From the NCBI GenBank assembly GCA_963719515.1, contig CAVRCJ010000006.1, forward strand, positions 416,001 to 480,000: DNA of 64,000 bases, in the 5' to 3' direction. The notes under the pieces are model-generated. The model did not search any database and had not been told where the DNA came from. It saw only the letters and a list, made by a program, of their open reading frames with translations. The position numbers were made by a program, and so were the translations under genes. Source of the DNA: an uncultured cyanobacterium. GTDB lineage: Bacteria > Cyanobacteriota > Cyanobacteriia > CAKZMO01. Positions 21,806 through 41,412 of the stretch are shown in pieces; the first letter of the stretch is position 1; the number at the start of each line of letters is the position of its first letter.

Positions 21806-24800
21806 CTAGGCGATCGCCGATTCTCGGTCGCCTGTGGAATGCTCGTCTAAGGCCAGTTCGTCCTGCGCCACAGCCTGGTGCTCCCGCCAATAATCAAACT
21901 TCGTAGTATCGATATGCTCCACAATGCCGCCTAGCTGCCGCACCTGCTGCACCATGTCGTCTGTGCCGCCGGGGCCGTCGCCCCCCTGCCCGTCCCACAG
22001 CACAAGCAGCCGCATGCAGTCAATCCGGTGAGTGAGGGCGTTGTACAGCGTCCAGCGGTTGTTGCGGCTGTAGATATCCTCCCCATCTGGAACCTTGCCC
22101 AGCCGCTCGGGCTGTAGGTGAATCGTCGCGTCCGGGTGGTTGGCGATCGCGTAGAAGCGCTCCACCCAGCGATCGCCCGCAAAATTCACAGAGTCTTGAA
22201 TAAAGCCTGGAGGGTCAAAGGGGAGATAGATATCGGCCACCATGCCGCGAGCCAGGCAGGACTCTAAAAAGAGAATGTCGCCGCCGCAGGCGATGCCGCC
22301 GCAGATGGCCCTGCAGCCCGACTGAGCGCCCAAACGCTCTAGCACCGCCTCAATGCGCCGCTTGGCTTCCGGCTCCATGGTGGCCGGAAAGCGAGGCTTA
22401 GGCCGACTGGGGCTATCGATCATGTGGCCGGAGAACATAAATACGGGGGCGGCGGTGTCTCCGTCGCCCTCCTCAATCGTGGTGCTGTTGAACCGACGCA
22501 GCTCTTCGTCTAGTACGGTGCGGCCCGCCTCCACATACTCGGGGCGAAATTCCAGCAGGTGCAGCAGATACAGCTGATCCAAAATCGATTGGAGGGCAAA
22601 CTTTTGGTTCCACAGCGCCGTTAGGGCCTTTTTGTAGGCGATCGCCACCTGTATGGGCTCAGACGCGACGCACACCGCGAGGTCTCCCAGGGACGAGGCC
22701 GCCCAAAAGTCCTTGGGGTGGTTTTGCATCTGGCTGCGCAGGCAGAACTCCACCGCCCCCTTGAGGTCCATCATCTGCTGTCGGTAGGCCGCTTCGTCGG
22801 GGTCACCCGTCGGCCCTACCCGCTCCGCTAAGCTGTCCAGCACCGCCGTCAGCATAAAGGCGTTGATGCCAGGGTAATAAGAGTTTTGGTTGAGCCGGAA
22901 GGCGCGCAGGTAGTTTTCAATCGCCTTTTGCAAAAAGTGGGAGGCGTCGTAGGCGGCTTTGATGCGCAGCTCGGCCTCTTCTAAATGGAACCACTTGTCT
23001 TTCCATAGGTCTTTATAGATCCGAGCCAGATAGGCCATGGCCTGGGTGTGATTGGGCTCGTCCTCCAGCAGCGCCTCCAGCTTCACGATGGCCTCGTTGG
23101 GCTGATGCAGGCGGCTGAGGTGGTAGGCCTCCTCGCAGCGAAACTCGACGTTTTCTGGGTTAATGTCTAGCCCTTGTCGGTACTGCTTCAGGGCCAAAGC
23201 AGAGTTCCCCGTATCCCGCAGCACTTTTCCGGCGTAGGCCAGCACGTCTTCTTTCACCAATGGATTTTTCACTTCTTCGGTGAGCAGCAGCACATCGCCG
23301 ATGCGCTTTTGCCGTTGGGCGACCTGCAGCCGCTGCTGCAGACTGGTGTACTCTTCCCAGTAGCCGGTGGCTAGAGGGGTGCGCAGGGTCTTGCGGTCAG
23401 GCTCTATCAAGCCATCCAGCAGGTTGAAGATGGGGCTGTGAATGGCGTTGCGGTCCGACTCCCAGGTGGCAAGCAGGGTGCTGATAATGGCCTGCTTATC
23501 TTTTTTGAGGTGGGCGGGATCAGGACAGCCGCTGTCATCGCAGTGGTAGGGGATGGTGCGCACGTTGAAGATGTCGAAGGGCATGTAGGCCCGTCCGGAT
23601 TGGATGTGGACGATGCCCCGCTTGCGCATGGCGTGGCGGATGCCCAGCTCGTAGTAAACGTTGGCATTGTCGATGCTTAGGTCCGCAATCACCAGGTCCG
23701 CCAGCAGCAGCTCTTGGAACATATCGGTGAGGATGTCGCCGCTGGCGGATTCTTCGTCGGCGCGAAAGGGTTCGAATCGCGCCTCTAGCAGAGCGGGTTT
23801 GATCAAATCGCTGTAGATGCGGTCGAAGTCAATCCAGCTGCCATCGGCTGCCTGCTTACGGCCAAAGGGCATCACGACAAAAGCGTGGGGAGCTCCCCGA
23901 GGCACGGTGGGCAGCTCTGTAGGCACGGGGGCGGGGACAGGGGCGGGCAGAGGCGCAGGCTCTTCTACGACCACCGCTGCAGGCACGTTGGGCGGCACCG
24001 CATCGACGCTCTTGTCGTCGTCGGCCTGAGGTGGCGCGTCCTCGGTATCGGTGAAGCCGACGTCCACCGTGATCGGCGTGATCTCAGGTTCTGTCCCTTG
24101 AGGGACCTGGTCAAGTTCAACGGGGGTGGCGGTGGCGGCCTGCAGCAGCGTCTGGTCCGTATCGTCTAGCTCGGGAATGCCTGAGGGCTGGCCCGTCAGC
24201 AGCGCCTCAGTCGCCACAACCAGCTGAAAAAATTGGGAGCCCGTGCGCTCGTCTGGCATCAGCCCCAGCCAGCGATTGCGAATTAGCATTAGCTCTAGCC
24301 GCCGCTGCGTCGCCGCCTCCAGGGTCGCGGTTAGGCCAGAGATGTCAATCCACAGCCCCACCGCCAGGCTCGCTGCCAGAGGCAAGGCGGCCCACAGCCT
24401 GAAGGGACTGGCCAGCACCAGCAGTAAAATGCTGCAGCCCCCCAAGAGCACCACTACCACCCACAGCACCTGCTGCTGGCGCTGCAGCCCAGCCACCTGC
24501 CGCGCCAGCTGAGAAATTTGCGGGTCAAGGCGTTCTGTCAAGTAGCCTTCTGCCAGCAGGTCGGGGTAGCTCTCGCGGGACGCCGCCTTTGTCATTAGCA
24601 GAACTCCGGTGGGAGCCACCTGCTGCTGCACTTGCTCTACCTGGCAAGTTAGCCAATGATGTCGCTGCGGGATCTTTTGCAGCACGGTACGGTAGAGATA
24701 AATAGCCCGCCCTAGGGTCTCGGTAGCGCTCTGCAGGGCTGCCCAGGACCGCCGCTCTCGCATTTGGCTGGCGCTGACAAACAGCATTACGGCGGCGATC

Positions 24801-25048
24801 GCCAGCCCAATCGCGCCCACGCTGAGACCCAACGCCGAAGATGCCTTAGGGGAAGACAGCAGCGCCAAGAAAATTGCCCCTAACAGCAGCGTCATCCAAG
24901 CCGCTTGGACGAGCAGATATTTTCGAAAGGAGTCGCGACCGCTCTTTTGAAGCTGGATATAGAGCTGCCAAGCATCGGCCAACAGTGAGGAATCGGAGGG
25001 GCGATGGCGTTGCGTCATAGGTGTTGAAGGTGAGAAGGGTAGCTGCAT
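21806..25048 (-). CDS. Multidomain protein: N-terminal SLATT-like TM modules, deoxyribohydrolase/NDT-like domain, TPR (DUF4071/TPR-S-like), C-terminal SLOG-like domain
   Basis: Two 2-TM units (W..L.SATE.L...IYLYRT); AFVVMPFG...ADLVIADLSIDNANVYYELGIRHA; YYPGINA; FSGHMID...ACGGDILF...VLWDGQGGDGPGGT. Confidence 0.75.
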   Translation of the reverse strand: MQLPFSPSTPMTQRHRPSDSSLLADAWQLYIQLQKSGRDSFRKYLLVQAAWMTLLLGAIFLALLSSPKASSALGLSVGAIGLAIAAVMLFVSASQMRERRSWAALQSATETLGRAIYLYRTVLQKIPQRHHWLTCQVEQVQQQVAPTGVLLMTKAASRESYPDLLAEGYLTERLDPQISQLARQVAGLQRQQQVLWVVVVLLGGCSILLLVLASPFRLWAALPLAASLAVGLWIDISGLTATLEAATQRRLELMLIRNRWLGLMPDERTGSQFFQLVVATEALLTGQPSGIPELDDTDQTLLQAATATPVELDQVPQGTEPEITPITVDVGFTDTEDAPPQADDDKSVDAVPPNVPAAVVVEEPAPLPAPVPAPVPTELPTVPRGAPHAFVVMPFGRKQAADGSWIDFDRIYSDLIKPALLEARFEPFRADEESASGDILTDMFQELLLADLVIADLSIDNANVYYELGIRHAMRKRGIVHIQSGRAYMPFDIFNVRTIPYHCDDSGCPDPAHLKKDKQAIISTLLATWESDRNAIHSPIFNLLDGLIEPDRKTLRTPLATGYWEEYTSLQQRLQVAQRQKRIGDVLLLTEEVKNPLVKEDVLAYAGKVLRDTGNSALALKQYRQGLDINPENVEFRCEEAYHLSRLHQPNEAIVKLEALLEDEPNHTQAMAYLARIYKDLWKDKWFHLEEAELRIKAAYDASHFLQKAIENYLRAFRLNQNSYYPGINAFMLTAVLDSLAERVGPTGDPDEAAYRQQMMDLKGAVEFCLRSQMQNHPKDFWAASSLGDLAVCVASEPIQVAIAYKKALTALWNQKFALQSILDQLYLLHLLEFRPEYVEAGRTVLDEELRRFNSTTIEEGDGDTAAPVFMFSGHMIDSPSRPKPRFPATMEPEAKRRIEAVLERLGAQSGCRAICGGIACGGDILFLESCLARGMVADIYLPFDPPGFIQDSVNFAGDRWVERFYAIANHPDATIHLQPERLGKVPDGEDIYSRNNRWTLYNALTHRIDCMRLLVLWDGQGGDGPGGTDDMVQQVRQLGGIVEHIDTTKFDYWREHQAVAQDELALDEHSTGDRESAIA

Positions 25049-25224
25049 AGGGCTGTGGGAGAGCGGTAGCTCCTATTTAGAGTGCTACTGTTTAGCCCGA
25101 CCACAGTGACGTTACTGAACTTCTAAGGCGGAGCCTCCCGCAGTTGGGATTCGCCGATAAATTACCTGCACCCTTTTCGCTTGTTTGTTAGGACACTGAC
25201 TTTAGCAGCATCCCCTTAGACCGC

Positions 25225-25407
25225 TTAATGCCCCGCCATCTTTTGAATGACCGACGTTTGCTGCTCAATCACTGAGGTCTGCTGTTGAGATAGCGCAATC
25301 AGAGACGCAATTGATTCCTGCTGCACCAGCTGCAGCGATCGCAGCTCGCTGATCTCTTGCCTTAGGGACTGAATTTGAGCCTGTACGTCGTCTTGAGAAA
25401 ATTCCAT
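25225..25407 (-). CDS. Small coiled-coil hypothetical protein (60 aa)
   Basis: Heptad-rich Q/L/I/S sequence, co-oriented between the two SLATT genes. Confidence 0.5.
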   Translation of the reverse strand: MEFSQDDVQAQIQSLRQEISELRSLQLVQQESIASLIALSQQQTSVIEQQTSVIQKMAGH

Positions 25408-25458: not shown

Positions 25459-26880
25459 CTAAGCCACGATGCGCGCCTTGGCCCGGTCGATGTACTTAGA
25501 GAATACATCCCAGCCATGGTAGCCGCCATTGACTAGCTTACGTACGCGCCGCCAGTCTCCGGCCCGGGCCGCTGTCGCGACGCCCCGGTCTTTGAAGTAG
25601 CAGGCCAGCACTTTAGCCGAAACTTCAGGATCCATCGCCAGATCGGGGTTGTTTTCTAAGTCAACGCCGAGCTTTTTACCGTAGGTGCGGTAGTTTGCCC
25701 GGCCCGTCAGCTGAATATAGCCCCGCCCGTGGTAGCGAACCCCATCGCCGGGGTGAATATTCCCCAGATCTTTGCGGCCTTCGTAGCGTTTCCAGTATTT
25801 CTCCCCCCCCCATTCATGAACGGGTTTCATTCCCGAGGTTTCGACGCGGATAGTGGCTAGCATGCCGATGAGCACGTGTTTGTCGAGGATGTCGTAGTCC
25901 TGCAGCGCCGCGAGAATGCCGGGAAGATACTTGCGGCAGTCTTCTAGCGGGCATTCCAGCACTTGCGACACCTCTTCCGCTGTTGCCAGCTGGGGCACTG
26001 AAGCTACGGCCCCATTTCCGCTACGGATTCTCTGGCCGGCTCCATTGCCATTGGCTACTGGCTTTGTCTGGTTCACAAGCGCCCGAAGCGCGTCGAGATC
26101 AACCTCCTCTTCCCAGGGCATCGCCGCAGCCCCCAGTGGCGGCAGCCCCTTCAACGGGTCTAGGCCATTGGGGGCTGCGGTCCCGTTTGCTACCGGCTCG
26201 CTGGCGTCGCCATCAGAAGAATGGGCCAGTCTTTGGCGTTCCTCTAACTGTCGGCGCTCTTCTAGCTGCTGCGCTCGCTCGAGCTGGACGTTAACGTTTC
26301 GCAGGGCGGCCTCGGCATTGAGCTGGGCCTCTTTAGCTGCGAGTTTATCTTCGTCCTGCTTTTCGTCTAAGCGAGCGAGGAATCCTTGGACATCCTGCTG
26401 GATGTATTGCTCGACGCGATTGGCAAAAGCGGTGTAGGCCTCGCTGTGGCTTTCAAACTGGTGATAGGGACCGGAGAGCTGGAAAAACTGCCACCCTTCA
26501 ATCTTCATCCCCTCCGCCGTGTTGCGGTAGTCACGGTATTTGTCGCCGTGGCCGAAGAACTCCTCCACCGCCGCCGAAACGGCAACGATCTGACTGAGCC
26601 CCAAAGCCGTCCATCCGACAGCGTTTTGAAAGCGCTGGTTTTCTTCGCCGGGACTGCGGAAGCTGATTAGCGCCGGCACTAAAACGCCGCCGACAATGGT
26701 GATCATTCGTAGGGTATGGTGGCGGTTGCGCTCTTTAGTGGCCCGGCCCTCTAGCCACATCAGCTGATCCAGCCAGCGATTTTTGAGAAACTCTTTGCGC
26801 AACTCGGAGATATCTAGACGATCGACGATACCGCCCAGGGTGTTCTTGAGATAGTTTCGGTAGTCATTCTTCTTGCCCAT
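25459..26880 (-). CDS. SLATT/DUF4231 membrane module fused to GH19 (lysozyme/chitinase-like) hydrolase
   Basis: RWLDQLMW..2 TM..YRNTAEGMKIEGWQFFQLSGPY; GH19: ATIRVET, GDGVRYHGRGYIQLTGRANY, NPDL, VNGG. Confidence 0.85.
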   Translation of the reverse strand: MGKKNDYRNYLKNTLGGIVDRLDISELRKEFLKNRWLDQLMWLEGRATKERNRHHTLRMITIVGGVLVPALISFRSPGEENQRFQNAVGWTALGLSQIVAVSAAVEEFFGHGDKYRDYRNTAEGMKIEGWQFFQLSGPYHQFESHSEAYTAFANRVEQYIQQDVQGFLARLDEKQDEDKLAAKEAQLNAEAALRNVNVQLERAQQLEERRQLEERQRLAHSSDGDASEPVANGTAAPNGLDPLKGLPPLGAAAMPWEEEVDLDALRALVNQTKPVANGNGAGQRIRSGNGAVASVPQLATAEEVSQVLECPLEDCRKYLPGILAALQDYDILDKHVLIGMLATIRVETSGMKPVHEWGGEKYWKRYEGRKDLGNIHPGDGVRYHGRGYIQLTGRANYRTYGKKLGVDLENNPDLAMDPEVSAKVLACYFKDRGVATAARAGDWRRVRKLVNGGYHGWDVFSKYIDRAKARIVA

Positions 26881-27319
26881 ATGCCTTTAATCCCAAGTGC
26901 TTATCGTTAAACTAGCGCAATTGTGAAGGGCGATCGCGCTCCAGCGCGTTTGCGTAGAACATCCGAGCTGTAGATGGTCCGACGGTTTTCGCCGAACTTC
27001 GCAAATACTGCAGGAAAGTCACAAAAATTCACGTCTTCAAAATCTTAAAAAGTGAAACCTGCTTTAGAGAATCAATACCTAAAAATACGCTGCTCCACTA
27101 AAAATCTCAAGCGGCTGCAGATATTTCCATGAACTTACGTTTCGATGCTTTAGGGGTATTTACCAAAACTTTATTTCGCTCAGGCTATAGTGCAAATATC
27201 TTGCTTTGCCTTGAGGCCGCCTTCCTCGAGGCTAGAGCCAGGATTATTGCCCAGAACGGTGTAATAAGCCGTGCTAATGCGGGCGATTGTGCAACTACCG
27301 CTTAGGCTCCCCAATCGTC

Positions 27320-28513
27320 ATGAATCTTCACCTTAACGTCCTCCAGCCTCAGTACGAGCGAGCGTTTCTCAACTGCGCTATTCGGTCCGACAGTCAGTCG
27401 CAGGTCGAGGCGATCGCCAATCAGATGGTTGGGCTGCGATCGCATTACGAAGCCGTAGAAGCAGAGACGGGAGTGCCCTGGTGGTTTGCCGGGATTTTGC
27501 ACTACCGGGAGTGGAATTTTCGGGAGCCTGAGCTGTTTGAGCGTAAAGCAGCAGAGGTTTTGATTGCCAAAAACTATCATCAGGCCCGTACGCGCACCTT
27601 AGGAGCCTACCTGTGGGGCTTTGACCTTTGGAACGGGTTTCGAGACGGCTCGGGTGAAGACTCCTCCTGGGTGTGGGCGGGCACCAACATTCTTGAAGAG
27701 GACACCCAAAAAATTGGGGTTGCCGCCATCCTGGTGTATCTGCAGAAGAGGAATATCATCGACATGCCTAAGCCCCAAAAGGGGGCGCGGCTGATAGTGC
27801 TTGCAGATACCACCTTTAAGGTCCGGCCCGAGCAGTCCTACCGCCTGAAGTCAGACGAGAAGATGGTCGTCAAGGCGGGGACTCAGCTCGAGGTGCTAGA
27901 AGACGATCCAGCGGAGGGCAACCACACCAAAATTGTGCTCCCCGATGGGGTACTGATGGGGCAGGATAGCCGCAGTGACTGGTATGTGTTCAGAGGGCAT
28001 GTGTCCATGGAGGGCACTGATCCAAAAAATCAGCCCAAGGACGAGCCCGAGGAGCCTGTCGCCTCGGTGGCTTCTGAAGACAAAGGAAACCCCATTACGG
28101 TGCCTAAGCTGGGCACCGTGTATCTCGGCAACCCCATCTTAGAAGGGGGGCATTTTAGCTGGGCTGAGGCCACTAAAAACGGGGCCCGCATTCCCGTAGA
28201 CGGGGGGGTTGTGGACGGCATCCTTAAAATTGCTGAGGTGATGGAAGAGGTGCGGGAGCATCTGGGCGATCGCTCCATTCGGGTTAACTCCTGGTACCGC
28301 GACCCGGTAACCAACCGCCGCGTGGGGGGAGCCAGCAAATCGCGCCACCTGAGCGGCGATGCGGTGGACTTTGTGGTGTCAGGCATCTCTCCGCCTCAGG
28401 TGAATCGTCAGCTCGAGTCCTGGTGGAACAGCCAGGGCGGTCTGGCCAGCGCCAGCAGCTTTACCCACCTCGACGCTCGCGGCTATCGCGCCCGCTGGTC
28501 ATACGGATTTTAG
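27320..28513 (+). CDS. Peptidoglycan hydrolase: lysozyme-like N-term plus peptidase M15A C-term
   Basis: YEAVEAETGVPWWFAGILHYRE; SWYRDP..NRRVGGASKSRHLSGDAVD...FTHLD zinc ligands. Confidence 0.82.
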   Translation: MNLHLNVLQPQYERAFLNCAIRSDSQSQVEAIANQMVGLRSHYEAVEAETGVPWWFAGILHYREWNFREPELFERKAAEVLIAKNYHQARTRTLGAYLWGFDLWNGFRDGSGEDSSWVWAGTNILEEDTQKIGVAAILVYLQKRNIIDMPKPQKGARLIVLADTTFKVRPEQSYRLKSDEKMVVKAGTQLEVLEDDPAEGNHTKIVLPDGVLMGQDSRSDWYVFRGHVSMEGTDPKNQPKDEPEEPVASVASEDKGNPITVPKLGTVYLGNPILEGGHFSWAEATKNGARIPVDGGVVDGILKIAEVMEEVREHLGDRSIRVNSWYRDPVTNRRVGGASKSRHLSGDAVDFVVSGISPPQVNRQLESWWNSQGGLASASSFTHLDARGYRARWSYGF

Positions 28514-28528
28514 TTAGAAAAAGTAGCC

Positions 28529-31500
28529 ATGAATAGCTTCCAAGATGCGTTTATCTCCTACGGACGCAAGGACAGCAAGGCGTTTGTCGCTCGCCTAAAT
28601 CAGCGGCTGTTGGCGGCGGGGTTAGAGATTTGGTTTGATTTTGACGACATTCCCCTGGGTGTGGACTTTCAAAATCAAATCGATGACGGCATTGAAAAAT
28701 CCCACAACTTTTTGTTTGTCATCTCTCCTCACGCCGTCAACTCTCCCTACTGCCGCAAGGAAATTGAGCTAGCGCTTCGCCACCGTAAGCGGGTTATCCC
28801 GCTACTGCACGTGGAAGAAGTAGACCGGGCAACCTGGGCAGCGCGATCGCCAGACGGTACCAATGAAGATTGGGACACCTATTGCGCTCAGGGACTGCAG
28901 TCTAGCTTTGTCAACATGCACTCCGACATCGCTAAGATCAACTGGGTCTATTTTCGCGAGGGGCAAGACGACTTTGAGGCTGCGTTTGCAGGGCTGTTGG
29001 ATATCATCGGCCGCCAGCAGGATTACGTGCATCAGCATACCTATCTGCTCAAGGATGCTCTCACCTGGGAGCGGCAGCAGCGGCAGCCTACCTACCTGCT
29101 GGGCAAAGACGCCGGGCGTGCCCACCAGTGGCTGACGAAGACGTTTGACGAGCAGCCCCCCTGCTTCGCTACTGATCTGCAGGCGGAGTTCATTACCGAA
29201 AGCCTAAAGCGGGTCAACGGGGGGATGACCCAGGTGTTTTTGTCCTACAGCGAGGAGAACCGGCTGCAGCGGGAAGTAATTCACCGTATTCTCCAGCGTC
29301 AGGGCTTCACGGTTTGGGTCAACACCACCGATATTCAGAGCGGTACGGATTTTGAGCAGGCGATTCGAGAAGGCGTAGAGCGGGCTGACACCGTCGTTTA
29401 TTTGCTCTCCCCCAATGCTTTGGCCTCCCAATACTGTCAGCAGGAGCTTGGCTTTGCCCAAACCTACAACAAGCGGATTATCCCACTGCTGATTCACCCT
29501 GTGGATGGGGTGGAGGTGCCCGATGAGCTGCGGGTCATTCAGTTTATCGACTTTCAAATGATTTCTGGGACTGATGAGGCAGAAGGCAGGGTCGAGGACG
29601 AGGCGGCGCAGGGGGCCATCGCCAAGCTGATTCAGGTGCTGCGGCAAGACGAAGACTATTATGACTGCCACAAGCGCACCCTAGTCAAGGCGTTGCACTG
29701 GGAGCGCAACCGACGCCGCAAGAAGCACCTGCTGCGGGGGAGCGCGTTTGCCGAGGCGGAAACCTGGCTGACGGCCAGTCGGCACCAGACGCTCCCGCCC
29801 ACTCGTCTGCAGGAAGCGTTTATCCAGGCTAGCCAGGACATCAACCGCTACTTTGACGCCTTTATCTCCTATGGACGCGCCGATAGTCTTCAGTTTGCGG
29901 TTCAAGTGCAAGAGCAGCTGAGCCAGCAGGGGCTAAGCGTCTGGCTCGATAAAAGCGACATTCCGGTGGGGGTCGACTATCAGGCTCAGATCAACGACGG
30001 CATCAGCAAGTCCCACAATTTCATTTTCATCATCTCCCCCCATGCGGTCCACTCCCCCTACTGCCTCAAGGAAATTGAGTTTGCCCTGAAGTTCAACAAG
30101 CGCATCGTGCCCCTGATGCACGTTGAAACCATTAGCTACGAGACCTGGCGGCAGCGCAACCCTGAGGGCACTTCGGCCCAGTGGAAAGATTACCAAGCGG
30201 CGGGGCGGCATACCGCACAGGGAAGCGTCCACTCCGAAATCAGCAAAATCAACTGGCTCTTTTTCCGTGAGGGGGTAGACGAGCCCGAAGCCGCGATCGC
30301 CAGCCTCATCGAGCTGCTGCGGCAGCATGAGCCGGTGGTTCATCTGCACACTGAGCTATTGCTCAAGGCGTTAGCCTGGGATACTCACCAGCGGCAGGCT
30401 CAGTATCTGCTCACCGGAGACGATCGGCGGGAGGCGGAAGCCTGGCTGACGGCAGACTTTGCGGAGGAGCAGCCTCCCTACCGACCCACCGACCTGCAGG
30501 CGGCGTTCATCACTGAAAGCATTAAAAGCGTTGACGGGACGACGCAGGTGTTTTTGTGCGCGGCGGACGAGTATGGGAATGAGGAGCCTTCAGCCTCAGA
30601 GGCACCGGCGGCGGACACTCCTATACTCCAGTCAGCTCAGATTCGGCGAGCCCTGCAGCGCTCGGGCATTCCCGTCTGGAATCCCCAAACAGATGTGCAG
30701 GCCGGGGAGAATTTACAGCGGGCGATCGCTCGCGGGGTTGAGGAGACCGACAGCGTTGTGTTTGTGATATCGCCTCAAGCGCTGGTAGAAACGGTGTGTC
30801 TTGAGATTTTAAACCAGGCATTTCAGCTCAACAAGCGCATCATTCCGGTGCAGCTGCAGGCCTTGGATAATCTGAAGCTGCCCTCGGTGCTCAAGTCGCT
30901 GCGGCCCATCGGGCTAGAGCGCGATGGCGGCGGGCTGACGGAACTGAGCGTCCAGCAGCTCGTGGGAGCTCTGCGTCAAGATGCGGTGTACTACCGCACC
31001 CACAAGCTGCTGCTGCGCAAAGCCCTCAAGTGGGAGCGGCAAAAATATAACCCCAGTATCTTACTGCGGGGCAAAGCGCTGCGGCGCTATGTCACCTGGC
31101 TCGACGTGGCGCAGCGCCGTGAGCATTCTCCCATTCCCATTCAGCAGCGCTTTGTCCGCGAAAGCCTGGACCAGCCCCCTAACCAGACCGTGGACGTGTT
31201 TATTGCCTCAGCTCCAGAGGACATCGAGTTTGCCCGCAGACTGAACCAAACCCTCCAGGTTCAAAGTAAGACCACTTGGTTTGAGCAAGAGCACCAGGCC
31301 ACCGAGGTCGACGCCCAAGGCGATGTTCGGCAGGCGATAGAAAACGCCGAAAACGTGGTGGTAGTGGTGTCTCCTAACTCGGTGGGCTCTGCCGCTGGCC
31401 TCAAAGAGCTAGAGCATGCAGAAGCCCTCAACAAGCGCGTTATTCCAGTGCTCTATCAAGAGGTGCTGATTTCGAAGCTGCCCCCCGTCTTAGAGAAGCG

Positions 31501-33040
31501 CTCGGCCATCGACTTCCGCGCCAACAGCGGCGACTTTTTGACCAACTTTGGCGAGCTCTACCGGGCCATTGAGAGCGAGCCCCAGCATATGTATCAGCAC
31601 ACGCGGCTGCTAGTGAAGGCGAAGGAGTGGCACGACGCAGGGCGAGACGACAGCTACCTGCTGCTGGGACGCGATCGCGATGAGGCGGTGGACTGGCTGG
31701 CGGCGGCTGACGCTAAGACCCCCTCGCCTACAGATCTGCACCGAGGCTACGTTAAGGCGAGTCAGCAGCTGCCGTTTCGCCGTATCAGGCGGCGCTTTGC
31801 GGTGCTCACCAGTCTGGCGGCGACCGTCTTGGTGGGCGGGCTGAGGTTGGTGGGCGGCCTGCAGGCGGCGGAGCTGCAGGCGTTCGATCACCTGCTGACG
31901 CTGCGGCCCAGTGAGCCCCAGGACGATCGCTTTTTGACGGTGACGGTGGATCAGTCGAGTGGCTCCTGGCTGCGGGAGCGCTTGATTGACGGCGACTACG
32001 AGCCGGGATTGGGCACGGTGCCCGACCAGGCGCTGGCGGAGGCGATCGCCTATCTCAACGAGCAGGGGGCGCGGCTGATTGGCATTGACTTCTACCGCGA
32101 CTTTCCAGCAGAACCAGCGCTCGCCCAGCAGCTTCGGCAGCTCGACAACGTGATGGGCATCTGCAAAGCGAGCGACGACTTTAGCGAAGGATTTATGGCA
32201 CCTAGCGACGTGCCTGTTGAGCGGGTTGGCTTCAACGACTATCTCAGCGATGGCGGTAGCGTAACTCGTCGCCACTATCTTAAGCAGGACAATGATCCTG
32301 AGTTCTGTGACACGGAAGACAGCTTTAGCCTAGTCTTAGCGCGGCGCTACTTGGCTCAGGAGGGCGTTGACTACGTCGATCCTTGGGACGAGGAGACTTG
32401 GCCCCCTGCCCTGAAGTTTGGGGAGACCACCATACCTGAGCTGTATCGCGGCCGCAGTGCGGGGTACTCCCTATCTTTGGCCGGTGCCGAGTCAAACAGC
32501 TCGGTGAATGGGTTGGGGGGCTACCAAACGATGCTCAACTTCAGAGCCCACAACGGGGATGCAACCCAGTTTGCGCCGGTCATCAGCTTAAAAGACGTGC
32601 TCACCCGTAGCGCTCCTCGCGACCTAATTGAGGGGCGTGTTGTGCTCATTGGCTATGAGGATTTATCGGATCGCAACGCAGATGTGTACAACACGGCTTA
32701 CCAGGAAATGCCTGGCGTTATGCTTCAAGGACAGATGACGAGTCAGCTGATTAGTGCCGCCCTAGATAATCGCCCCTTGATCTGGTATTTCAACCTAGAG
32801 TACGACCTTCTGTGGATTGGCGCTTGGTCCCTGGTCGGCGGCTTGGTCTTTTGGGGGTTCGTTCGTCCATCACGGCTGATTCCAGCCAGTGCTGCTGTCT
32901 TAGGTCTCCTTTACGGGAGCTGCTATGTCGCCTTAGCTGGGTCAGGTCTCTGGTTACCGCTTGTTCCAGCCGCGATCGCATACCTTGTGGCAGGTGCGGG
33001 CGTGAGTGCCTTGAGCTATCGCGTCCGTCATCCATCGTAG
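28529..33040 (+). CDS. Multi-TIR (5 copies) - CHASE2 membrane receptor
   Basis: AFISYGR/VFLSYS/AFISYGR/VFLCAA/VFIASA TIR starts with SP....S..C..E; TM; CHASE2 (ELQAFD, IGIDFYRD, VGFND, GRVVLIG, PGVMLQGQMTSQL); 3 C-terminal TMs. Confidence 0.88.
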   Translation: MNSFQDAFISYGRKDSKAFVARLNQRLLAAGLEIWFDFDDIPLGVDFQNQIDDGIEKSHNFLFVISPHAVNSPYCRKEIELALRHRKRVIPLLHVEEVDRATWAARSPDGTNEDWDTYCAQGLQSSFVNMHSDIAKINWVYFREGQDDFEAAFAGLLDIIGRQQDYVHQHTYLLKDALTWERQQRQPTYLLGKDAGRAHQWLTKTFDEQPPCFATDLQAEFITESLKRVNGGMTQVFLSYSEENRLQREVIHRILQRQGFTVWVNTTDIQSGTDFEQAIREGVERADTVVYLLSPNALASQYCQQELGFAQTYNKRIIPLLIHPVDGVEVPDELRVIQFIDFQMISGTDEAEGRVEDEAAQGAIAKLIQVLRQDEDYYDCHKRTLVKALHWERNRRRKKHLLRGSAFAEAETWLTASRHQTLPPTRLQEAFIQASQDINRYFDAFISYGRADSLQFAVQVQEQLSQQGLSVWLDKSDIPVGVDYQAQINDGISKSHNFIFIISPHAVHSPYCLKEIEFALKFNKRIVPLMHVETISYETWRQRNPEGTSAQWKDYQAAGRHTAQGSVHSEISKINWLFFREGVDEPEAAIASLIELLRQHEPVVHLHTELLLKALAWDTHQRQAQYLLTGDDRREAEAWLTADFAEEQPPYRPTDLQAAFITESIKSVDGTTQVFLCAADEYGNEEPSASEAPAADTPILQSAQIRRALQRSGIPVWNPQTDVQAGENLQRAIARGVEETDSVVFVISPQALVETVCLEILNQAFQLNKRIIPVQLQALDNLKLPSVLKSLRPIGLERDGGGLTELSVQQLVGALRQDAVYYRTHKLLLRKALKWERQKYNPSILLRGKALRRYVTWLDVAQRREHSPIPIQQRFVRESLDQPPNQTVDVFIASAPEDIEFARRLNQTLQVQSKTTWFEQEHQATEVDAQGDVRQAIENAENVVVVVSPNSVGSAAGLKELEHAEALNKRVIPVLYQEVLISKLPPVLEKRSAIDFRANSGDFLTNFGELYRAIESEPQHMYQHTRLLVKAKEWHDAGRDDSYLLLGRDRDEAVDWLAAADAKTPSPTDLHRGYVKASQQLPFRRIRRRFAVLTSLAATVLVGGLRLVGGLQAAELQAFDHLLTLRPSEPQDDRFLTVTVDQSSGSWLRERLIDGDYEPGLGTVPDQALAEAIAYLNEQGARLIGIDFYRDFPAEPALAQQLRQLDNVMGICKASDDFSEGFMAPSDVPVERVGFNDYLSDGGSVTRRHYLKQDNDPEFCDTEDSFSLVLARRYLAQEGVDYVDPWDEETWPPALKFGETTIPELYRGRSAGYSLSLAGAESNSSVNGLGGYQTMLNFRAHNGDATQFAPVISLKDVLTRSAPRDLIEGRVVLIGYEDLSDRNADVYNTAYQEMPGVMLQGQMTSQLISAALDNRPLIWYFNLEYDLLWIGAWSLVGGLVFWGFVRPSRLIPASAAVLGLLYGSCYVALAGSGLWLPLVPAAIAYLVAGAGVSALSYRVRHPS

Positions 33041-33130: not shown

Positions 33131-34090
33131 ATGCCGCAAGCTCTCCGCAAGCTCATACACCGTACCCTCGCGATCGCTCTCATCGCCTGGGTACTGGTGC
33201 CTCTACAGATTCCAGAAGCTTCTGCCGGTCTATTTGGTTCACCTGGGCGCGGCCCCAGCAGCGCCTCTGGCCGCAGACGCGGGGGGGGAGTTCGCAGCGG
33301 TCGCCTGCTGGGGGGCATCAACCCAGCCATCCCCTACGTGATTTCTCCCCGCCACACCTGGCTAGAGGACGACACCTTCACCATCGAGTGGAACCCCGTG
33401 GCGGAAGCTACCAGCTACACCGTCTCCCTGTGGCGCTGGTCCTACGCCCGCGACGAGCGAGACGCGCTGATTTGGCAGACCACCACCACCGAGGCCCAGG
33501 TGCCCTATGCCGGCAGCCCAGCGCTAGAGCAAGGTCGACATTACTCCATTGAGGTGGTGACCGACGGCGGGATTTCGTCTACCGCCGACGCCGGTGACGC
33601 CAGGGCCGGGTTCCAGCTGCTGTTTGCCGAAGATCTGAACCTATTGGAGCGCGATCGCCTGCGCATTGAGCGGCAAGACCTGTCGCCCACGGAAACGGCG
33701 TTTACCCTAGCTGCGCTGTACGCTGAAGACCATCTGTATGACGAAGCTATCGATATCCTGACGCCCCTTACCGAGGCCGGGACGCGCGACCCCTGGATCC
33801 ATAAGGCCCTGGGCGACGTACAAAGTTATATCGGGTTGAATCAGCGCGCTCTAGATCACTACCGGCAGGCCCATCAGCTTGCCGTCGCCGCTAACGACAG
33901 AGAGACGCAGGCAATTATCCTAACCAGCTTGGGCGCAGTCAGCGCGACCTCAAACCGGCTAGATGAGGCTATCGAGTTCTTCGAGGCGGCTCAGCAGCTC
34001 TACCGCCTGCAGTCGGTAGACGACAGGGTTGCCCGGCTGCAGCGTCGTATCGACCTGCTTGAAGCGGCTCGCCAAGCATCAAAATTTTAA
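33131..34090 (+). CDS. Exported DUF928-like / TPR protein
   Basis: Signal peptide, GRRRGGGVR motif, PYVISPR..WNPV, C-terminal TPRs; sits between CHASE2 and CHAT genes. Confidence 0.65.
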   Translation: MPQALRKLIHRTLAIALIAWVLVPLQIPEASAGLFGSPGRGPSSASGRRRGGGVRSGRLLGGINPAIPYVISPRHTWLEDDTFTIEWNPVAEATSYTVSLWRWSYARDERDALIWQTTTTEAQVPYAGSPALEQGRHYSIEVVTDGGISSTADAGDARAGFQLLFAEDLNLLERDRLRIERQDLSPTETAFTLAALYAEDHLYDEAIDILTPLTEAGTRDPWIHKALGDVQSYIGLNQRALDHYRQAHQLAVAANDRETQAIILTSLGAVSATSNRLDEAIEFFEAAQQLYRLQSVDDRVARLQRRIDLLEAARQASKF

Positions 34091-34168
34091 ACTGTTGGCC
34101 CACAGCTATTGGTTCACAGCTCTAAGTCGCGGTCTCCAGAGCGCCTACAAACCTACTGCCTTAACCCT

Positions 34169-37100
34169 ATGCCTGCCTACTCTCTTACGCTACGGCTCTC
34201 CCTACTGACGGCGGCCCTGATGCTGCTGGGCCAAACCTCAGCCGTGGCTCAGTCCGTCGTCGAGGCTGACGACGACGTTGGCACCGTGGTGAGGCAGCGC
34301 GATCGCACCTTCGATATTGACGGCGGCACCCGCTCGGGCGACGGACACAATCTATTCCACAGCTTCGAGCAGTTTGGCCTGGACGCGGGCGAAATCGCCA
34401 ACTTTCTCTCTGACCCGGAGACCCGCAACATTTTGGGCCGGGTAATGGGCGGTGAGGCCTCCCTGATTGACGGGCTGCTGCGGGTGAGCGGCAGCGACGC
34501 CAACCTGTTTTTGACTCAATCCGGCGGGCGTGATTTTTGGCGAGACTGCTCGCCTAGACGTGGGGGGAGACTTCACGGCGACCACCGCCACCGGCATTGG
34601 GTTTGGTGAGGGGTGGTTCCCGGCTGTGGGAGATGGGGACTACAGCGCCCTGGTGGGCGACCCGACGGCGTTCGACTTCGCGGTGGCGACTCCCGGATCT
34701 ATCGTTAACGCTGGCGCGCTGGCGGTGACGCCGGGAGCGTCTCTCACATTGCTCGGAGGGAGCGTGCTGAACACCGGCACCCTCACCGCGCCGGGAGGCA
34801 CCTTGACCATTGCGGCGGTGGAGGGCGATCGCCGGGTGCATATTACCCAAGAGGGGATGCTGCTGGGGCTGGAGCTGGAAACCCAGGATTCTCCTGCTGC
34901 TGAAAATGCGCTGCCCTTCACGCCGCTGGCTCTGCCGGAGCTGCTGACTGGAGGCGGGGTCAGCAGCGCTAGCGCGGTGCAGGTGAGCGACGGGGAGATC
35001 AGGCTGAGCGGCTCGGGGCTGACGGTGCCCAGCGGTGCGGGGACGGCAATCGCCTCAGGCACCCTAGACGCCTCTGATCCAGGGCGCTCTACGGCGGAAA
35101 TTAATGTGGTGGGCGATCGCGTAGTGGTCGCAGACGCAGCGCTGGACGCCTCCGGCGCAGAGGGGGGAACGGTGCGCGTCGGGGGAGATTTGGGCGGTGC
35201 TGGGACCATTCCCAACGCCAGGGACACTCTGGTGACTGCCGACAGCGCGATTCACGCCGACGCGCTCGCGGGAGATGGCGGCACCATAGCGGTCTGGTCT
35301 GATGAGACGGCGACCGTGGGCGGGGTGCTGACGGCGCGGGGGGGCGCGATCGCCGGTGACGGGGGCTTCATCGAAACCTCGGCCAGCACCTTGACCCTCA
35401 ACAGCACGCCGGATGCCAGCGCCCCCAGCGGCAGCGGCGGCACCTGGCTGATTGACCCTACCGACATCGACATTGTGGCGGGAGCGGGGGCGATCGGCAG
35501 CAATACGGTAGGGGCTGACACCATCAGCGCTGCTCTGAATACGGGCACTAGCGTCACTATTACCACCGAGATTGGCGGCACCGATGCGGGCAACATTACC
35601 CAAGCCGCAGACGCGCCGATCGCCAAGACAGAGGGCGGTGACGCGCAGCTGGCCTTTGAGGCTGCCGGTGACGTTGCCCTACCTGCAGAAATTACGGCGA
35701 CCAGCGGGGCGCTAGACGTGACGGTTATTGCCGACGCCGATGGCAACGGCAGCGGGGTCGTTAGCGTTGGCAACGCCGGAGCGGGGGGTATCACTTCCAA
35801 CGGCGGGGCTATTGCGATTACCGGCAGCAGCAACAACCCAGCCTCTGACTTCGGAAGCGGCGTCCGCATTCAGGGGCCGGTCTTCTCCGGCGGCGGGGAC
35901 ATCACGATCGCAGCGGCGACGGCGCTGCCTGATGAGACCCCCATCGATTTGCGATCGCCGGTCGACGTCGGGACAGGGACGCTGACGCTTCAAGCCGACC
36001 TGCTGCCCCCCGCCTTCGAAACGCTTCAGGGCACCGGCACCTTACAGCTGCAGCCCTTCTCCCCGGCGATCGCCTTTGACCCCACGGGAATCGACCTAAC
36101 CGCTGTCCCAGACACCTTCAGCAATGTGATCGTCGGCGACCCCAACAGCACCGCGCCAATTCTTATCAGCGACGACTTAGCTTTTAGCAGACCGCTAACG
36201 CTGCAGACCACAGGCGATATCACCTTCGATGCGGACGGAGCGCTGATCACGATTGACGGTCCCAGCCTCAGCGCTATTTCGGGCAATACCATTCGCATCA
36301 ACTCAGATTTAGATGCAACCGACTTAGCTCTGACCGCTACCAACGACATCGTCTTCAATAGCGCGATGGTTGCCGCCCAGAATTTGAGTGCGATCGCCGC
36401 CAACAACATTGTGATCGCGCCGGGGGTGTCTCTCACCTTTGGGATTCCCGACGAGCTGTCGGCTGTGCCGCTGCCGGAGGATGCCGCGATTGTGCTGACT
36501 GCCAACGCTGATGGCGTGGCGGGGGGGGACGTGACGATGGACAGTACCGAATCGCTTACGATTCCTGGCGGACGCGACCTCAGCGCTTCTGGAGAAAATG
36601 TGGTCCTTGGCACGCTTTCGGTGGGCGACTTTCTGCAGCCGTTTGATGCTGGTGACGTTATCACCGGCTTCATCGAACGACCGGCGGCAGATGTGACCTT
36701 GAGTGCCGCCGCCGACCTTTCGGTCACTCAGCTCGAATCTAGCGCCAATACAGGCGGAGACCGGTTTGTACCGACCTTGCCTATCCAGGCTATCCAACAG
36801 GGGGGGGACGTCTCCCTGTCGTCTGCGGTAGGCGATATCACCGTCGCGGGCAGCATCCGCGTTGAAGCTGACCCATCGGGCGCTCAGACCGATCTGCAGG
36901 GGGGCAGCGTCACTATCAGCGCAGCTCAGGGCGACGTCACCATTGGCGACAACATCAGCACCTTTGCGCGGGACAATGCTCCTGGCAGGGATGCCGTAGA
37001 CGTCGACTTAGTTGGTGGTGATATTGATATTGATGCTCCCAATGGCGAGGTAAGGGTGGGCGGACAGCTGGCAACCTTTGCCCGCAACACTATGCCAGGA

Positions 37101-40100
37101 GAGGTCTCTGTGGGAACGGGGGGGAGTGTCAGCATCGTGGCAGACCGCATCCGCATCGACAATGCTGCTGAAGATCGTATCGGTGTCTTCGCTATCGAAG
37201 CGCCAAGCGTCGACGAGATCATAGATGCCCCCGGCATAGGTGGGGCGATCGCCCTGACGGCCCCGGGCGGCGTTCAAGTTGCTGGAGACATCATCACCAG
37301 CAACGCCCCGATTACGATTGACGGTCCTGCCATCCTCAGCACTCCGGAGGGAGACCGCGTCAGCGTCACTAACCAAGGTACGACGGGGGCGATCGCCTTT
37401 GGCGACACCCTAGATGCGCCGGACGGCCTGCTGGTAGAGTCTGGGGCGGGAGATGTGACCTTCGATGGCGCGGTGGGCTCCAGTACCCCGCTGGACAGCC
37501 TCAGCATCGAAAGCAGCGGGGCAACCCGGTTTAACGATGATGTCAGCGCCGTCAGCCTCACCACCGACGGCGGCGGCAGCACGGACATAGGGCTCAACCC
37601 CACCCTGAGCCTTGACGCCCTTTCCCTGGGGGATACGCTGCTGGGCAGCGGCAGCCTGACGCTGCAGACGCTTTCACCTGGGCTGGCGATCGCCCTGGGA
37701 ACGCCGATAGGGTCGCTACCGGCAGACTTGGTGTTGAGCGCCGCCGCCACGGGGCAGCTGTCGCAATTTTCGGGTCTTGCGGTGGGTCGACCCGACGGCA
37801 GCAACGATGTTGGGGTTTTTGCCCCGATCACCGTCAATGGCCCCGTGACGCTGACCGGTGGTGACATCACCGTTGACGCTGCTGCCGCCCTAGAGACGTT
37901 GAGGGGAGATATCGCCCTTGACGGCGACGGTGTTGACATCGCTGGAACCCTGGCCTCGAATGGTGGAGATATTGCGGTGAGCGGTGACGCTGGCGACGGA
38001 GGCATCGACGTCGCCCTATCGGGGACGATCGCTGCCGGGAGCGGGGATATCGCTCTGACAGGCAGCCAAATCGACATTGCCCCGGAGGCTACGGTCAGCG
38101 GCAGCAGCCTGCTGCTGGTCCAACCCAACGTCGCCGACCTCGACATTGAGCTGGGGGGCACGGCGGGGTTCCTCAGCCAGAGCGAGCTGGACGCCCTGGC
38201 CGCTGGCTTTGGCGAGATTACCATCGGCCAGCCTGACAGCACGGGCAGCGTTACCCTGAGCAGTGGCGTACGCGTCAGCAGCCCCCTCACGATCGCAGGC
38301 GGGTCTATCCTCATTGGCCCTGACCAAGACACAATATTCACGATCACCGATGGCGATGGCGGCCGCGTTTCCGGACTGGGGTCCCCCGTTCGGTTCGAGA
38401 ATTTTGAGGCGATCGCGGCGGGCAGCGGTGACGATACGTTCCGCAACGGCAGCGTCTTTGACGGGGCGCTGGACGGCGGCGCTGGGTTCGACACCTTTGA
38501 GGCGGAAGCTGACGGCACTATCGAGCTTACAACCCTCGATCTGGAGAACATTGAGGCCATTCGCGGCAACAACAGCAGGCTGCTGGGAACCGCCGGGGCT
38601 GATGACTTCTCGGTTACTGCGTCAGATACAGTCGAGGTGCAGGGCTTCAGCATCAGCGAGCTGGCTCAGGTCGACGGCGGCGCGGGCAGCGATCTGTTCC
38701 GAGTTCTGACGGCGGCAGCGCTCGACGATTTTATTCGTGGGGGGGCGGGCGACGATGAAATAAGCTACGCAGGACTCACTGGGTCCCCTCAGCATCGACT
38801 TAACCGCCCTCAACCCCGAGGGCATTGAGACCCTTACGGGCAGCGCTGGCGACGATACGATTCAGCTGGGCAATAGGTTTGACGGCGCGCTGTTTAGCGG
38901 CAGGATTGGGGGCGGCCCTGGCGATCTCACCCTGCGGGGCGGGACGCTCAACCTGGCGGAGCTGACCCTCAGGGCAGCTGGCGATCTGACTATTGAGGGC
39001 AATGGGGCAGTGACGGTCGGGAACCTAATCAACCCCGGAACCGATATCACTATTACCGGTAGCGCCATCACCACCGGCACCCTCAACACCAGCGCTGCGG
39101 AAGCGGAGGGGGGGGCGATCGCCCTTCGGTCAGACTCATTCATCGAGACCGGCACCCTAATCACCTCGGGGCTGTCGGGCGGTAACCTACGAGTGGAGGC
39201 CACCACTGAAATCACCACGGACCGCATCGACACTAGCGGCGCTCTTGACGACGGTGGCGACGGCGGCGACGTTTTGCTTGACCCCAGCGGCGATATTCAG
39301 GTGACGAGCATCAACGCGCAGGGCGGGCCAGCTGGCATCGGGGGGACGATTGACATTACCACCGAGAGGTTCTTTCGGGCCACCGGCCAGTTTACGGATC
39401 AGACCAACACCCGAGCGAGCATCTCGACAGCTGGGGGCGGGGGGGGCGGTCCGATTACAATTCGCCACGGCGGAGCGGGACTGATTCCTTTTTCCATCGG
39501 TGACGGCGGCGGCGATCTTCTCAACGGCACCTCAGCGGCGATCGCCAGCGGGACTGCTGCCCTATTGCCGGTTCAGGCCATTGAAGAGAGCCTCACGGTC
39601 GGCAATATTCGGATTTTGACCGACGTGTCAGAACGGGCAGACGTGCTAGATCTCGATCCCTGCCCTCCGAACTGCGGGGACCTAGAGGCAGATCGTCTCG
39701 GTCAGTTTCAAGCCTCAGATCTTGAGGCAGACGTCTCCGACAGCATAGACTCGCCCCTCGTCGAGACCCTATCTACCAACATCGGCGAGGTCGCAGCCGC
39801 TGTCTCACAGCTAGAGGAGCAGTTCACCGCAGAGTTCTCTGAATACTTGCGGTTGGGCCGTCCGGATCGGGTCTCGCTCTCTGAGCTGCAGGCCAGTCTA
39901 CGGCAGGTCCAAGCGCAAGCCGATATCTCTCCCGCCATTCTCTATGTCACCTTTGAGGATAGGGAAACGAAACAAAGGCACTTCGATTTCGCAATCCGAT
40001 CGCCGTCTGGAGCTGATTTTGGTGACGGCAGATGGATTGCCCTTGCACCTCCGCGTACCTGAGGTAACCCAGCGACAGCTGCAGCTCGAAGCGGCGCGGC

Positions 40101-41026
40101 TCAGGCGGCAGGTGTCTACCCCAAGCCGGGTGGGGACGACCCTCTATGAGGACTCGGCCCAGCAGCTCTATCGCTGGCTGATTGCGCCCGTGAACGACGC
40201 ATTGGTGTCCCAGGGCATCGACACTGTTGGCGTTGTCACGGATGCCGGGCTGCGATCGCTGCCCTTTGCGGCCCTCCACGACGGCACCGGCTTTTTGGTT
40301 GAGCGCTACGCCCTCACCCTGGTCCCCAGCGCCAGCTTGACCTACCTAGAGTATGAAAATCTTCAGCAGACGGGGGTTTTGCTGGGAGGGGCGAGTCAGT
40401 TCGCTAACCAGTCGCCTCTGCCGTTTGTGCCCGTCGAACTCGATCGCATTCAGGCCCTTTGGGGGGGCGATCGCTTCCAGGGGGATGAGTTTACCCGCAA
40501 AGCTCTCGCGGACCAGGTGCAGCAAGACTACAGCATTATTCATCTGGCCACCCACGGGGAGTTTCAGCCCGGCAGCACTGAAAACTCATACATTCAGTTC
40601 TCCGATGGTCGGCTGCAGGTTGACGAACTCAAGGCCCTCGACTGGCAGCCTGACGATATCCGGTTGGTGACCCTCAGCGCCTGCCAAACGGCCCTTGGTA
40701 ACCGCGAAGCCGAGCTGGGATTCGCCGGGCTGGCCGTGGCCGCTGGAGCCCAGTCCGCTCTAGCCAGTTTGTGGAGCGTCAGCGATGCGGCTACCACAGG
40801 CTTAATGATAGAGTTCTATGAAAACCTACAATCTATCTCAACTAAGGCCCAAGCGCTGAGGGCGGCACAGTTGGCTCTAATTGAGGGTAGTCTACCGATA
40901 GATGAGTTGCTTTTGGAACAAGGCAGCTCAGCTTTGGACGTTTCAGAAGCTTTTTCCTCCGGAAGTCAGTCTTTTGAACACCCCTTCTACTGGTCTGCCT
41001 TCACCCTAGTCGGTAGTCCTTGGTAA
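34169..41026 (+). pseudogene. Filamentous haemagglutinin-like (TPS domain) - CHAT protease, split by three +1 frameshifts (~2280 aa if corrected)
   Basis: NLFHSFEQF, NILGRV, (N)PAGVIFG TPS motifs; beta-helix repeats, GGAGxD motifs; CHAT IHLATHG and LSACQTA, HPFYWSAF; shifts near 34514, 38782, 39970. Confidence 0.82.
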
Positions 41027-41088
41027 TTAAAGCTGCTATTTGTAGGTAGAGTTGATAGACTATCCCGCCGACAGTGTTTATTTAAACT

Positions 41089-41412
41089 ATGGCCAATAGA
41101 ACCGTTTCCTTTCGGCTCCCCGAGACCCTAATTCGCGCGATTGAAGCAGAGGCAGAGCGCACGGGCCGTAGTAAAACTGAGGTGGTGATCGAAGCCCTGA
41201 CGCATCAAGATAGCCCCCTCGATGCCCTGCCCGCTATTACCAAGCCCAGAAGCCAGCTAGAGCGTCAAATCGACACCATCCGCTCTCAGGTTGAAGACAT
41301 CCACGGCACGTCCAATATCCACGTTGAGCAGCAGCTGGCCATTCTCATTAAAGCTGTTGAGGACGTTGCGTTGCGGGTTCAATCTATTGAATCACGGCTC
41401 AACTCGCCATAG
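41089..41412 (+). CDS. Ribbon-helix-helix (CopG-like) DNA-binding protein with coiled coil
   Basis: TVSFRLPETLIRAIEAEAERTGRSKTEVVIEAL. Confidence 0.8.
   Translation: MANRTVSFRLPETLIRAIEAEAERTGRSKTEVVIEALTHQDSPLDALPAITKPRSQLERQIDTIRSQVEDIHGTSNIHVEQQLAILIKAVEDVALRVQSIESRLNSP

Follow-up and report, generated by a model that had tools for sequence, protein, structure and literature searches.

The window analyzed here is a 64,000-nucleotide stretch from the genome of an uncultured cyanobacterium (GenBank assembly GCA_963719515.1, contig CAVRCJ010000006.1, positions 416,001 to 480,000; G000:C6:416001-480000 in our own numbering), and the locus under study occupies positions 21806..41412 of it. Two gene arms diverge at this locus. 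The left arm encodes a large SLATT-containing effector, a 60-amino-acid (aa) protein and a SLATT-GH19 protein, while the right arm encodes a second wall hydrolase, a TIR-CHASE2 receptor, a TPR protein, a haemagglutinin-CHAT protein and an RHH protein. An initial annotation, made from the sequence alone, had proposed that TIR-CHASE2 sensing is linked here to SLATT membrane effectors and cell-wall hydrolases in a conflict or lysis system. All of the open reading frames (ORFs) and orientations that it claimed were confirmed, as were the AT-rich divergent intergenic gap (26881..27319; 45.8% GC, versus about 56-57% for the genome's contigs) and the 15-bp spacing between the M15 stop at 28513 and the TIR start at 28529.

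Proteins encoded by the two arms

The 1080-aa protein of the left arm (21806..25048, minus strand) combines effector and sensor parts: two SLATT units, a Pro-rich linker, a cytidine monophosphate (CMP) hydrolase/deoxyribohydrolase (DRH) domain, TPR-S and SLOG. Pfam matches it to SLATT_1 (above the cut-off), TPR-S (51.8 bits versus a cut-off of 27.6, sited after the hydrolase domain) and MAP3K_TRAF_bd, and hydropathy gives four hydrophobic, putatively transmembrane (TM), segments in the two SLATT units. The hydrolase (aa 385-538) and SLOG (aa 866-1056) domains have no Pfam name on the window protein, and their assignment comes from an AlphaFold2 model of aa 384-1065 (682 aa), built with 86 sequences (predicted local distance difference test, pLDDT, 85). 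In a wide structure search, the top fold match of this model was ASK1 (Z 18.4, root-mean-square deviation [rmsd] 11.4, 406 aligned), which also matched the central region alone (Z 18.2, rmsd 3.7); the SLOG protein YpsA (Z 16.8, rmsd 3.4, 162 aligned) and the CMP glycosidase MilB (Z 13.0, rmsd 3.0, 133 aligned) were matched as well. Residues N463, Y466, E467 and G469 are invariant in 86 of 86 sequences, and the first three fit N-x-N-x-x-Y-E, the catalytic motif of BcTpr. Other searches returned less: Foldseek on the 682-aa model found TPR proteins only, and profile searches against solved sequences gave TPRs and, at the YELG motif, a weak hit to DNPH1 (E 0.88), with none useful for SLOG. The YAcAr SLOG family was matched by 7 of 30 SLOG members (best E 2e-4), and atlas matches of SLOG to YpsA-type clusters (0.85-0.87) were treated as leads only. 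The domain series first called as SLATT-deoxyribohydrolase-TPR-SLOG therefore stands, SLATT_1 and TPR-S by Pfam and the other two domains by fold matches. Elsewhere in the same genome, a second multi-TIR gene and a TPR-S/SLOG-like gene (C1:151528-155590 and C10:526914-529244) are each split in two ORFs, which is consistent with assembly indel errors. The genome's only LSDAT SLOG gene (L161; G000:C11:160780-161493) lies away from the locus and is a possible trans partner.

The SLATT-GH19 protein (473 aa; 25459..26880, minus strand) consists of a DUF4231-type SLATT with two TM segments, a variable linker and an endolysin-type GH19 muramidase. As initially called, both DUF4231 (above the Pfam cut-off) and GH19 are found by Pfam, and the protein also matches NCBIfam SLATT_1 (98.6 bits versus a cut-off of 41) and a PHROG endolysin family (E 9e-44). 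Conservation is highest in GH19 (76-94% identity), where both E347 and E356 are invariant in 11 of 11 sequences. Hydropathy, on which the topology is based, peaks at 59 and 89 across the family; two peaks place GH19 and the N-terminus on one side of the membrane, presumably the cytoplasmic one. The neighboring 60-aa Gln-rich helical protein (25225..25407, minus strand), previously described as a small coiled coil, is the product of a real small gene that directly follows SLATT-GH19 in 10 of the 12 genomes carrying the latter, and it was not found in the other two (G156 and G089). It has 16 invariant columns in 10 sequences, and a complex prediction with SLATT-GH19 scored 0.00.

The right arm opens with a 397-aa wall hydrolase (27320..28513, plus strand) made of a shortened lysozyme-like domain, a beta domain and an M15 zinc peptidase (Pfam M15_3; PHROG endolysin match, E 4e-23). 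Its residues H343, D350 and H383, which we take to be the M15 metal ligands, are all present, and hydropathy revealed no signal peptide or hydrophobic segment. Relatives place the N-terminal domain in the lysozyme-like family (COG5526, as we take its name to be), in keeping with the initial lysozyme/M15A call, although two segments of those relatives are missing and the domain may be inactive. Atlas matches for this domain were phage proteins without Pfam annotation (0.91; leads only), and a single-sequence AlphaFold2 model of the whole protein (pLDDT 33.9) was not used.

The next gene (28529..33040, plus strand) encodes a 1503-aa protein in which Pfam finds the five TIR domains (TIR_2) and the CHASE2 domain (E 7e-46) that had been called. 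Unit alignment and hydropathy resolve it into five units of TIR plus helical region, a TM segment at 1090-1108, an extracytoplasmic CHASE2 and C-terminal TM segments, so that the TIR units are predicted to be cytoplasmic and CHASE2 to face outward. The catalytic Glu is found in TIR1, 2, 3 and 5, with Ile in TIR4, and the Glu residues of TIR2 and TIR3 are kept in 13 of 13 orthologues. The ThcB4 model scored 124 bits on this protein, under its cut-off of 220.

Two putative partners of the receptor follow. A probably secreted 319-aa protein with C-terminal TPRs (33131..34090, plus strand) has orthologues in G002 and G156 and stands where other TIR-CHASE2 loci have DUF928. It had been described as a DUF928-like TPR protein; the TPR half of that description is borne out by Pfam, which matches TPR only, and we rejected the DUF928 half, as there is no PF06051 match and the likeness to DUF928 neighbors is limited to the leader (first ~60 aa; hhalign 92.8%). 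Downstream, TPS/haemagglutinin-N, a long repeat region and a CHAT peptidase are spread over four ORFs (34109..41026, plus strand). Pfam supports both the TPS and CHAT domains (CHAT E 5e-68), and the CHAT piece has His204 and Cys247 motifs, but the single gene of the initial annotation is intact in G002, as a 2380-aa ORF, relative to which the assembly has three frameshifts, near 34514, 38780 and 39965. Public short-read contigs from four runs of one study show single-base indels at all three sites (34513-34515 in three runs; 38779 in one run, at depth 2.7; 39964-39976 in three runs), and the frameshifts are therefore probably assembly errors; these runs could themselves come from the source material, and contigs of low depth can contain errors. 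The secreted TPR protein and the haemagglutinin-CHAT protein travel with CHASE2 and probably form the input side.

Last in the right arm is an RHH gene (41089..41412, plus strand). Its RHH_1 domain is confirmed by Pfam; as a member of the system we rejected it, because it occurs only in loci of this genus, beside a GTPase gene, and is kept in G004, which has lost the M15-to-CHAT stretch. It is probably a flank gene and a bystander.

Recurrence of the parts and likeness to described systems

We compared the locus with 401 cyanobacterial genomes, for which the multi-TIR listing scored only about three candidates per genome. Full-length SLATT-GH19 and lysozyme-M15 genes occur in the same 12 genomes, from two families, and are divergently adjacent in 10 of them; in G005 and G015 they lie on separate short contigs. 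The multi-TIR family is matched in 68 of the 401 genomes, including all 12 of these. G001 carries the block in two short contigs, as far as these reach, and in G004 a deletion runs from within the M15 gene to the CHAT end, with SLATT and RHH kept and SLATT-GH19 truncated. In the second family (G156, G089) the GH19-M15-TIR-CHASE2 order is kept and an LSDAT SLOG gene replaces the 1080-aa gene. Downstream of SLATT-GH19, the next gene encodes a SLOG domain in eight of the 12 genomes, TIR-WD40 in one and an unrelated protein in three.

Linkage also extends to other architectures. In 12 of 45 loci, DUF4231 and a listed multi-TIR gene are no more than 10 kb apart, compared to 0.26 expected under random placement; the 45 are those of 80 DUF4231 loci (one per locus, GH19-only rows dropped) whose genomes also have a listed multi-TIR locus. 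The 12 span nine genera and six families, with kin that are not independent. SLATT is fused to hydrolases in five ways: to GH19, to C39 plus GH19 (G162, G145, G301), to C39 (G238), to M15 (G147) and to a GH24 lysozyme (L163). Receptor, SLATT, hydrolase and LSDAT-SLOG share one strand, as single operons, in G162, G145, G238, G114 and the metagenome locus L163, and G354 brings together GH19, SLATT, TIR-CHASE2, DUF928, TPS and CHAT. The pairing of LSDAT with SLATT was reportedly noted by Burroughs in 2015 and is also implied by Pfam names. Of the 14 loci outside the genus that were selected by their TIR, six have DUF928. Most linked loci carry WD40 where CHASE2 is found here, and the input module formed by CHASE2, the TPR partner and haemagglutinin-CHAT is exchangeable.

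When GTDB was scanned with the 1080-aa protein, 145 stretches were confirmed and 79 loci retained from them, mostly of Chloroflexota. There were 69 non-cyanobacterial loci (L088, from which no ORF was recovered, was dropped), and 46 of these, almost all Chloroflexota, had 5 kb of upstream sequence. SLATT is present in 44 of the 46, C39-SH3 lies upstream in 34 and a TIR unit in 24, with C39-SH3 and TIR together in 24. The Glu is kept, and a TM segment follows the last unit, in all 29 partner TIRs (27 plus two cyanobacterial); the four that were scanned are WD40 proteins and the remainder cluster with those four, which points to a TIR-TM-WD40 receptor. A hydrophobic N-terminus is absent from all 36 C39-SH3 proteins, and fusion of C39-like domains to SH3, peptidoglycan-binding and GH19 domains suggests that they cut peptidoglycan. 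The core link of TIR receptor, SLATT, SLOG or DRH-TPR-S, and wall hydrolases thus recurs in independent architectures and in two phyla, and the two arms are therefore not chance neighbors. Since the full order was found only within the genus while the parts are widely linked, we conclude that the parts are a modular family and the exact two-arm block a genus-level assembly.

The nearest described systems are Thoeris types VII (ThsB plus ThsH) and VIII (ThsB plus ThsI), in which, according to a preprint (10.64898/2025.12.03.692087), canonical cyclic ADP-ribose (cADPR) activates the SLATT effector ThsH and the CMP-hydrolase-TPR effector ThsI, sometimes encoded in one operon. As in type VII, a catalytic-Glu TIR is encoded near a SLATT effector here; as in type VIII and the BcTpr core, a MilB fold with the N-x-N-x-x-Y-E motif is followed by TPR-S. 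The differences are that both effector types and SLOG share one 1080-aa chain here, that the TIR forms part of a membrane receptor with five such units and a sensor facing outward, encoded on the opposite strand from the effectors and not in a compact ThsB operon, and that the Thoeris types were found by defense-island enrichment. Wall hydrolases are attached here, and lysozyme, peptidoglycan and cell wall are absent from the preprint's main text, tables aside. On the modeled folds, the 1080-aa protein appears to be the effector parts of types VII and VIII fused. Because neither a compact ThsB operon nor a defense island is present, we did not file the locus as a Thoeris member; it is Thoeris-like signaling distinguished by a TIR on a membrane receptor and by outputs of endolysin type.

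BcTir/Tpr and TPR-S/ASK1-like "core Tpr" assemblies are said to build on Burroughs and Aravind 2020. According to the BcTir/Tpr preprint (10.1101/2023.05.26.542521), a TIR and a glycosidase-TPR protein together give defense, the BcTpr motif residues are N80, N82 and E86 (N-x-N...E), and TIR, YspA, LSDAT and patatin partners are listed. A MilB-like glycosidase plus TPR core and these same partners are also seen here, whereas the N-terminal SLATT pair, C-terminal SLOG, receptor-type TIR partner and hydrolases are features of our locus. In that source the signal was made by the Tpr protein and not by the TIR, so that either protein could be the signal source here. The logic from TIR to SLATT and from TIR to CMP-hydrolase-TPR is already described in Thoeris VII/VIII and BcTir/Tpr.

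Two further comparisons concern the outputs and the inputs. Like a holin-endolysin cassette, the locus pairs a small-TM membrane unit with hydrolases matching PHROG endolysin families (signal-less GH19, M15 or GH24), which have intact catalytic residues (GH19, M15) and, in the M15 protein, no N-terminal hydrophobic segment. Unlike such a cassette, it is chromosomal, with no phage structural or replication families recognized among the scanned window ORFs and hence no sign of a prophage; its hydrolase is fused to the membrane unit, a SLATT, and timing would come from the TIR signal. CHASE2/DUF928/CHAT trios are common in cyanobacteria. In clusters of this kind (G354, G127, G024, G009) a CHASE2 gene is followed by a secreted partner and TPS/CHAT, and CHASE2 and CHAT domains occur here too, but the output of our locus is a TIR array and the partner is not DUF928. 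A full-text literature search found no paper on that trio and no description of TIR-CHASE2 receptors or SLATT-hydrolase fusions, part of which may be listed in Burroughs 2015, in Burroughs and Aravind 2020 or in the Thoeris preprint's table of 29 types. SLATT effectors, CHASE2 sensors and receptors that sense the wall are mentioned in PMC7159879, PMC8195603 and 10.64898/2026.10.19.760177, for systems other than this one. A bacterial protein with the ASK1 regulatory fold, placed between a putative pore and a SLOG sensor, is of interest in its own right.

A proposed self-lysis switch and its alternatives

In known Thoeris systems, the TIRs are short cytoplasmic proteins that detect phage within the cell, and killing comes about through loss of nicotinamide adenine dinucleotide (NAD), loss of nucleotides or membrane leak. 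Our favored reading, to which we give a probability of roughly 55%, is that the locus is a modular Thoeris-like signaling system with a lytic output, that is, a signal-triggered self-lysis switch. The receptor, given its domain anatomy and hydropathy, would sense an extracytoplasmic cue (through CHASE2 here and a WD40 propeller elsewhere) and cluster its cytoplasmic TIRs. These, where the catalytic Glu is present, would convert NAD+ to an ADP-ribose-type signal, to be read by the SLATT pockets, TPR-S and SLOG; canonical cADPR, the signal of Thoeris VII/VIII, is its most likely form. By analogy with ThsH, ThsI and BcTpr, the SLATT units would then oligomerize and open the inner membrane, and the CMP-hydrolase domain, whose active site is in place, would attack the NAD or nucleotide pool. 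GH19 and lysozyme/M15, which have no export signal and are predicted to be cytoplasmic, could now reach peptidoglycan as endolysins do after holin action, and the cell would lyse or the filament break. Candidate triggers include phage, predators, wall damage and neighbor contact via the TPS-CHAT protein.

A bolder form of this reading, which we hold only tentatively, is that a receptor of Toll-like topology makes a TIR product that opens SLATT pores as a host-encoded holin, releasing endolysins, in a receptor-triggered programmed lysis of filamentous or colonial bacteria. To our knowledge, cell sacrifice and filament breakage in filamentous cyanobacteria have been described morphologically and have little genetic handle. 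If the proposal is true, active cell-wall lysis would be added to the outputs of TIR signaling, named genes and catalytic residues would become available for studying single-cell sacrifice and filament breakage, and receptor-triggered lysis could explain such events in cyanobacteria and Chloroflexota.

Several observations weigh against the self-lysis switch. The complete ~20-kb order is found in G000 and G002 only. Outside the genus, SLATT or hydrolase genes accompany 2 of the 14 TIR-selected loci, both from one genus (in the fetched stretch; some contigs are short), and among eight loci with cyanobacterial orthologues of the 1080-aa gene, none has a TIR unit or wall hydrolase in its neighborhood and one has LSDAT plus DUF4231. 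Neither TIR nor C39-SH3 lies upstream in 12 of the 46 non-cyanobacterial loci, and the Anaerolineae loci, being related and syntenic over a wider stretch, are less independent than their counts suggest. No motif in the divergent gap is common to more than 5 of 10 orthologous gaps; promoter-like sites were no more frequent than in shuffles (6 versus 5.2), and a terminator scan was at chance level (11 versus 15.5). A GH19 tethered on the cytoplasmic side could reach the wall only if the membrane were severely damaged or the protein were cleaved. Finally, the locus does not lie in a defense island: its GC equals the genome average, the flank genes are housekeeping ones (kaiABC, purD, ftsH, hisG and similar), PADLOC found generic domains only (ATPase, TPR, methyltransferase) plus an IS200/IS605 remnant in 36 flanking ORFs, and its matches on the locus genes were at domain level only. 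A purely anti-phage reading is weakened by this setting. The chain from TIR signaling through SLATT to wall hydrolysis keeps the support of its recurring core link, while RHH membership and the exact block beyond the genus fall away.

The same setting agrees with a rather unlikely alternative, in which the identical chain is non-lethal and plays no role in defense: with SLATT as a gated channel, the receptor would tune local wall remodeling (septa, filament fragmentation, hormogonia, colony release). The outward orientation of CHASE2 and WD40, the conservation of orthologues at 60-85% and the Cache/GAF, cNMP-binding and kinase genes beside other relatives would suit such a role. The characterized SLATT and CMP-hydrolase-TPR effectors are, however, toxic on cADPR (10.64898/2025.12.03.692087), the hydrolases are endolysin-like and freely exchanged, and the patchy presence (12/401) and the G004 deletion fit a dispensable conflict system.

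It is less probable still that two or three separate modules (TIR-CHASE2-TPR-CHAT, the SLATT/hydrolase pair and a lone DRH-TPR-S-SLOG) are neighbors in this genus only and have no common signal. They do stand alone in 12 of 14 TIR loci and eight of eight DRH loci outside the genus, and in G268 and G050 the hydrolase pair is on a different contig from TIR-CHASE2; yet adjacency is far above random placement, fusions arose repeatedly and independently, the same four functions are built from different families in Chloroflexota, and a diffusible signal requires no linkage. We give least credence to conventional Thoeris VII/VIII abortive infection, in which the hydrolase domains would be cytoplasmic sensors or accessories that bind wall fragments or phage lysins, with no lysis. 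The match of the effector parts to ThsH and ThsI and the truncated, possibly inactive lysozyme-like domain would agree with this, but the strong conservation of GH19 with both catalytic Glu residues, the M15 metal ligands and a TIR that is a membrane receptor, not a short ThsB, argue against it.

Further relatives and flanking genes

Several relatives show other combinations of these domains. LSDAT is fused to DUF4231 in one protein (L187:1428-2759), multi-TIR receptors have TPR-S-SLOG-nucleotide cyclase genes, one of which includes RyR, no more than 10 kb away (L131:5116-14009, L132:5687-15282), and in L133:1-10046 a DRH-Macro gene precedes three tandem TIR-unit genes of about 930-970 aa. A distant DRH-TPR-S-SLOG gene adjoins a patatin gene (L129:8708-12066), an arrangement listed in 10.1101/2023.05.26.542521. 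Two DRH-TPR-S-SLOG paralogues occur per locus in L043, L060, L061 and L087. In the Anaerolineales loci L032, L039, L044-L047, L049 and L052, SLATT and DRH-TPR-S-SLOG follow Cache-HAMP-GAF and cyclic nucleotide monophosphate (cNMP)-binding genes, with no TIR receptor there, and we read these genes as another input module.

Within the window, kaiA, kaiB and kaiC (13155-16160) identify a cyanobacterial host. A Fic gene (20439-21185; PADLOC SoFic/PDC-S04 domain matches) and a 143-aa ORF with three TM segments, together within 20439-21652, converge on the left arm and have no match at the same place in G002. An IS200/IS605 element (11175-13084) adjoins kaiC, with tnpA and with tnpB in two pieces ~550 bp apart.

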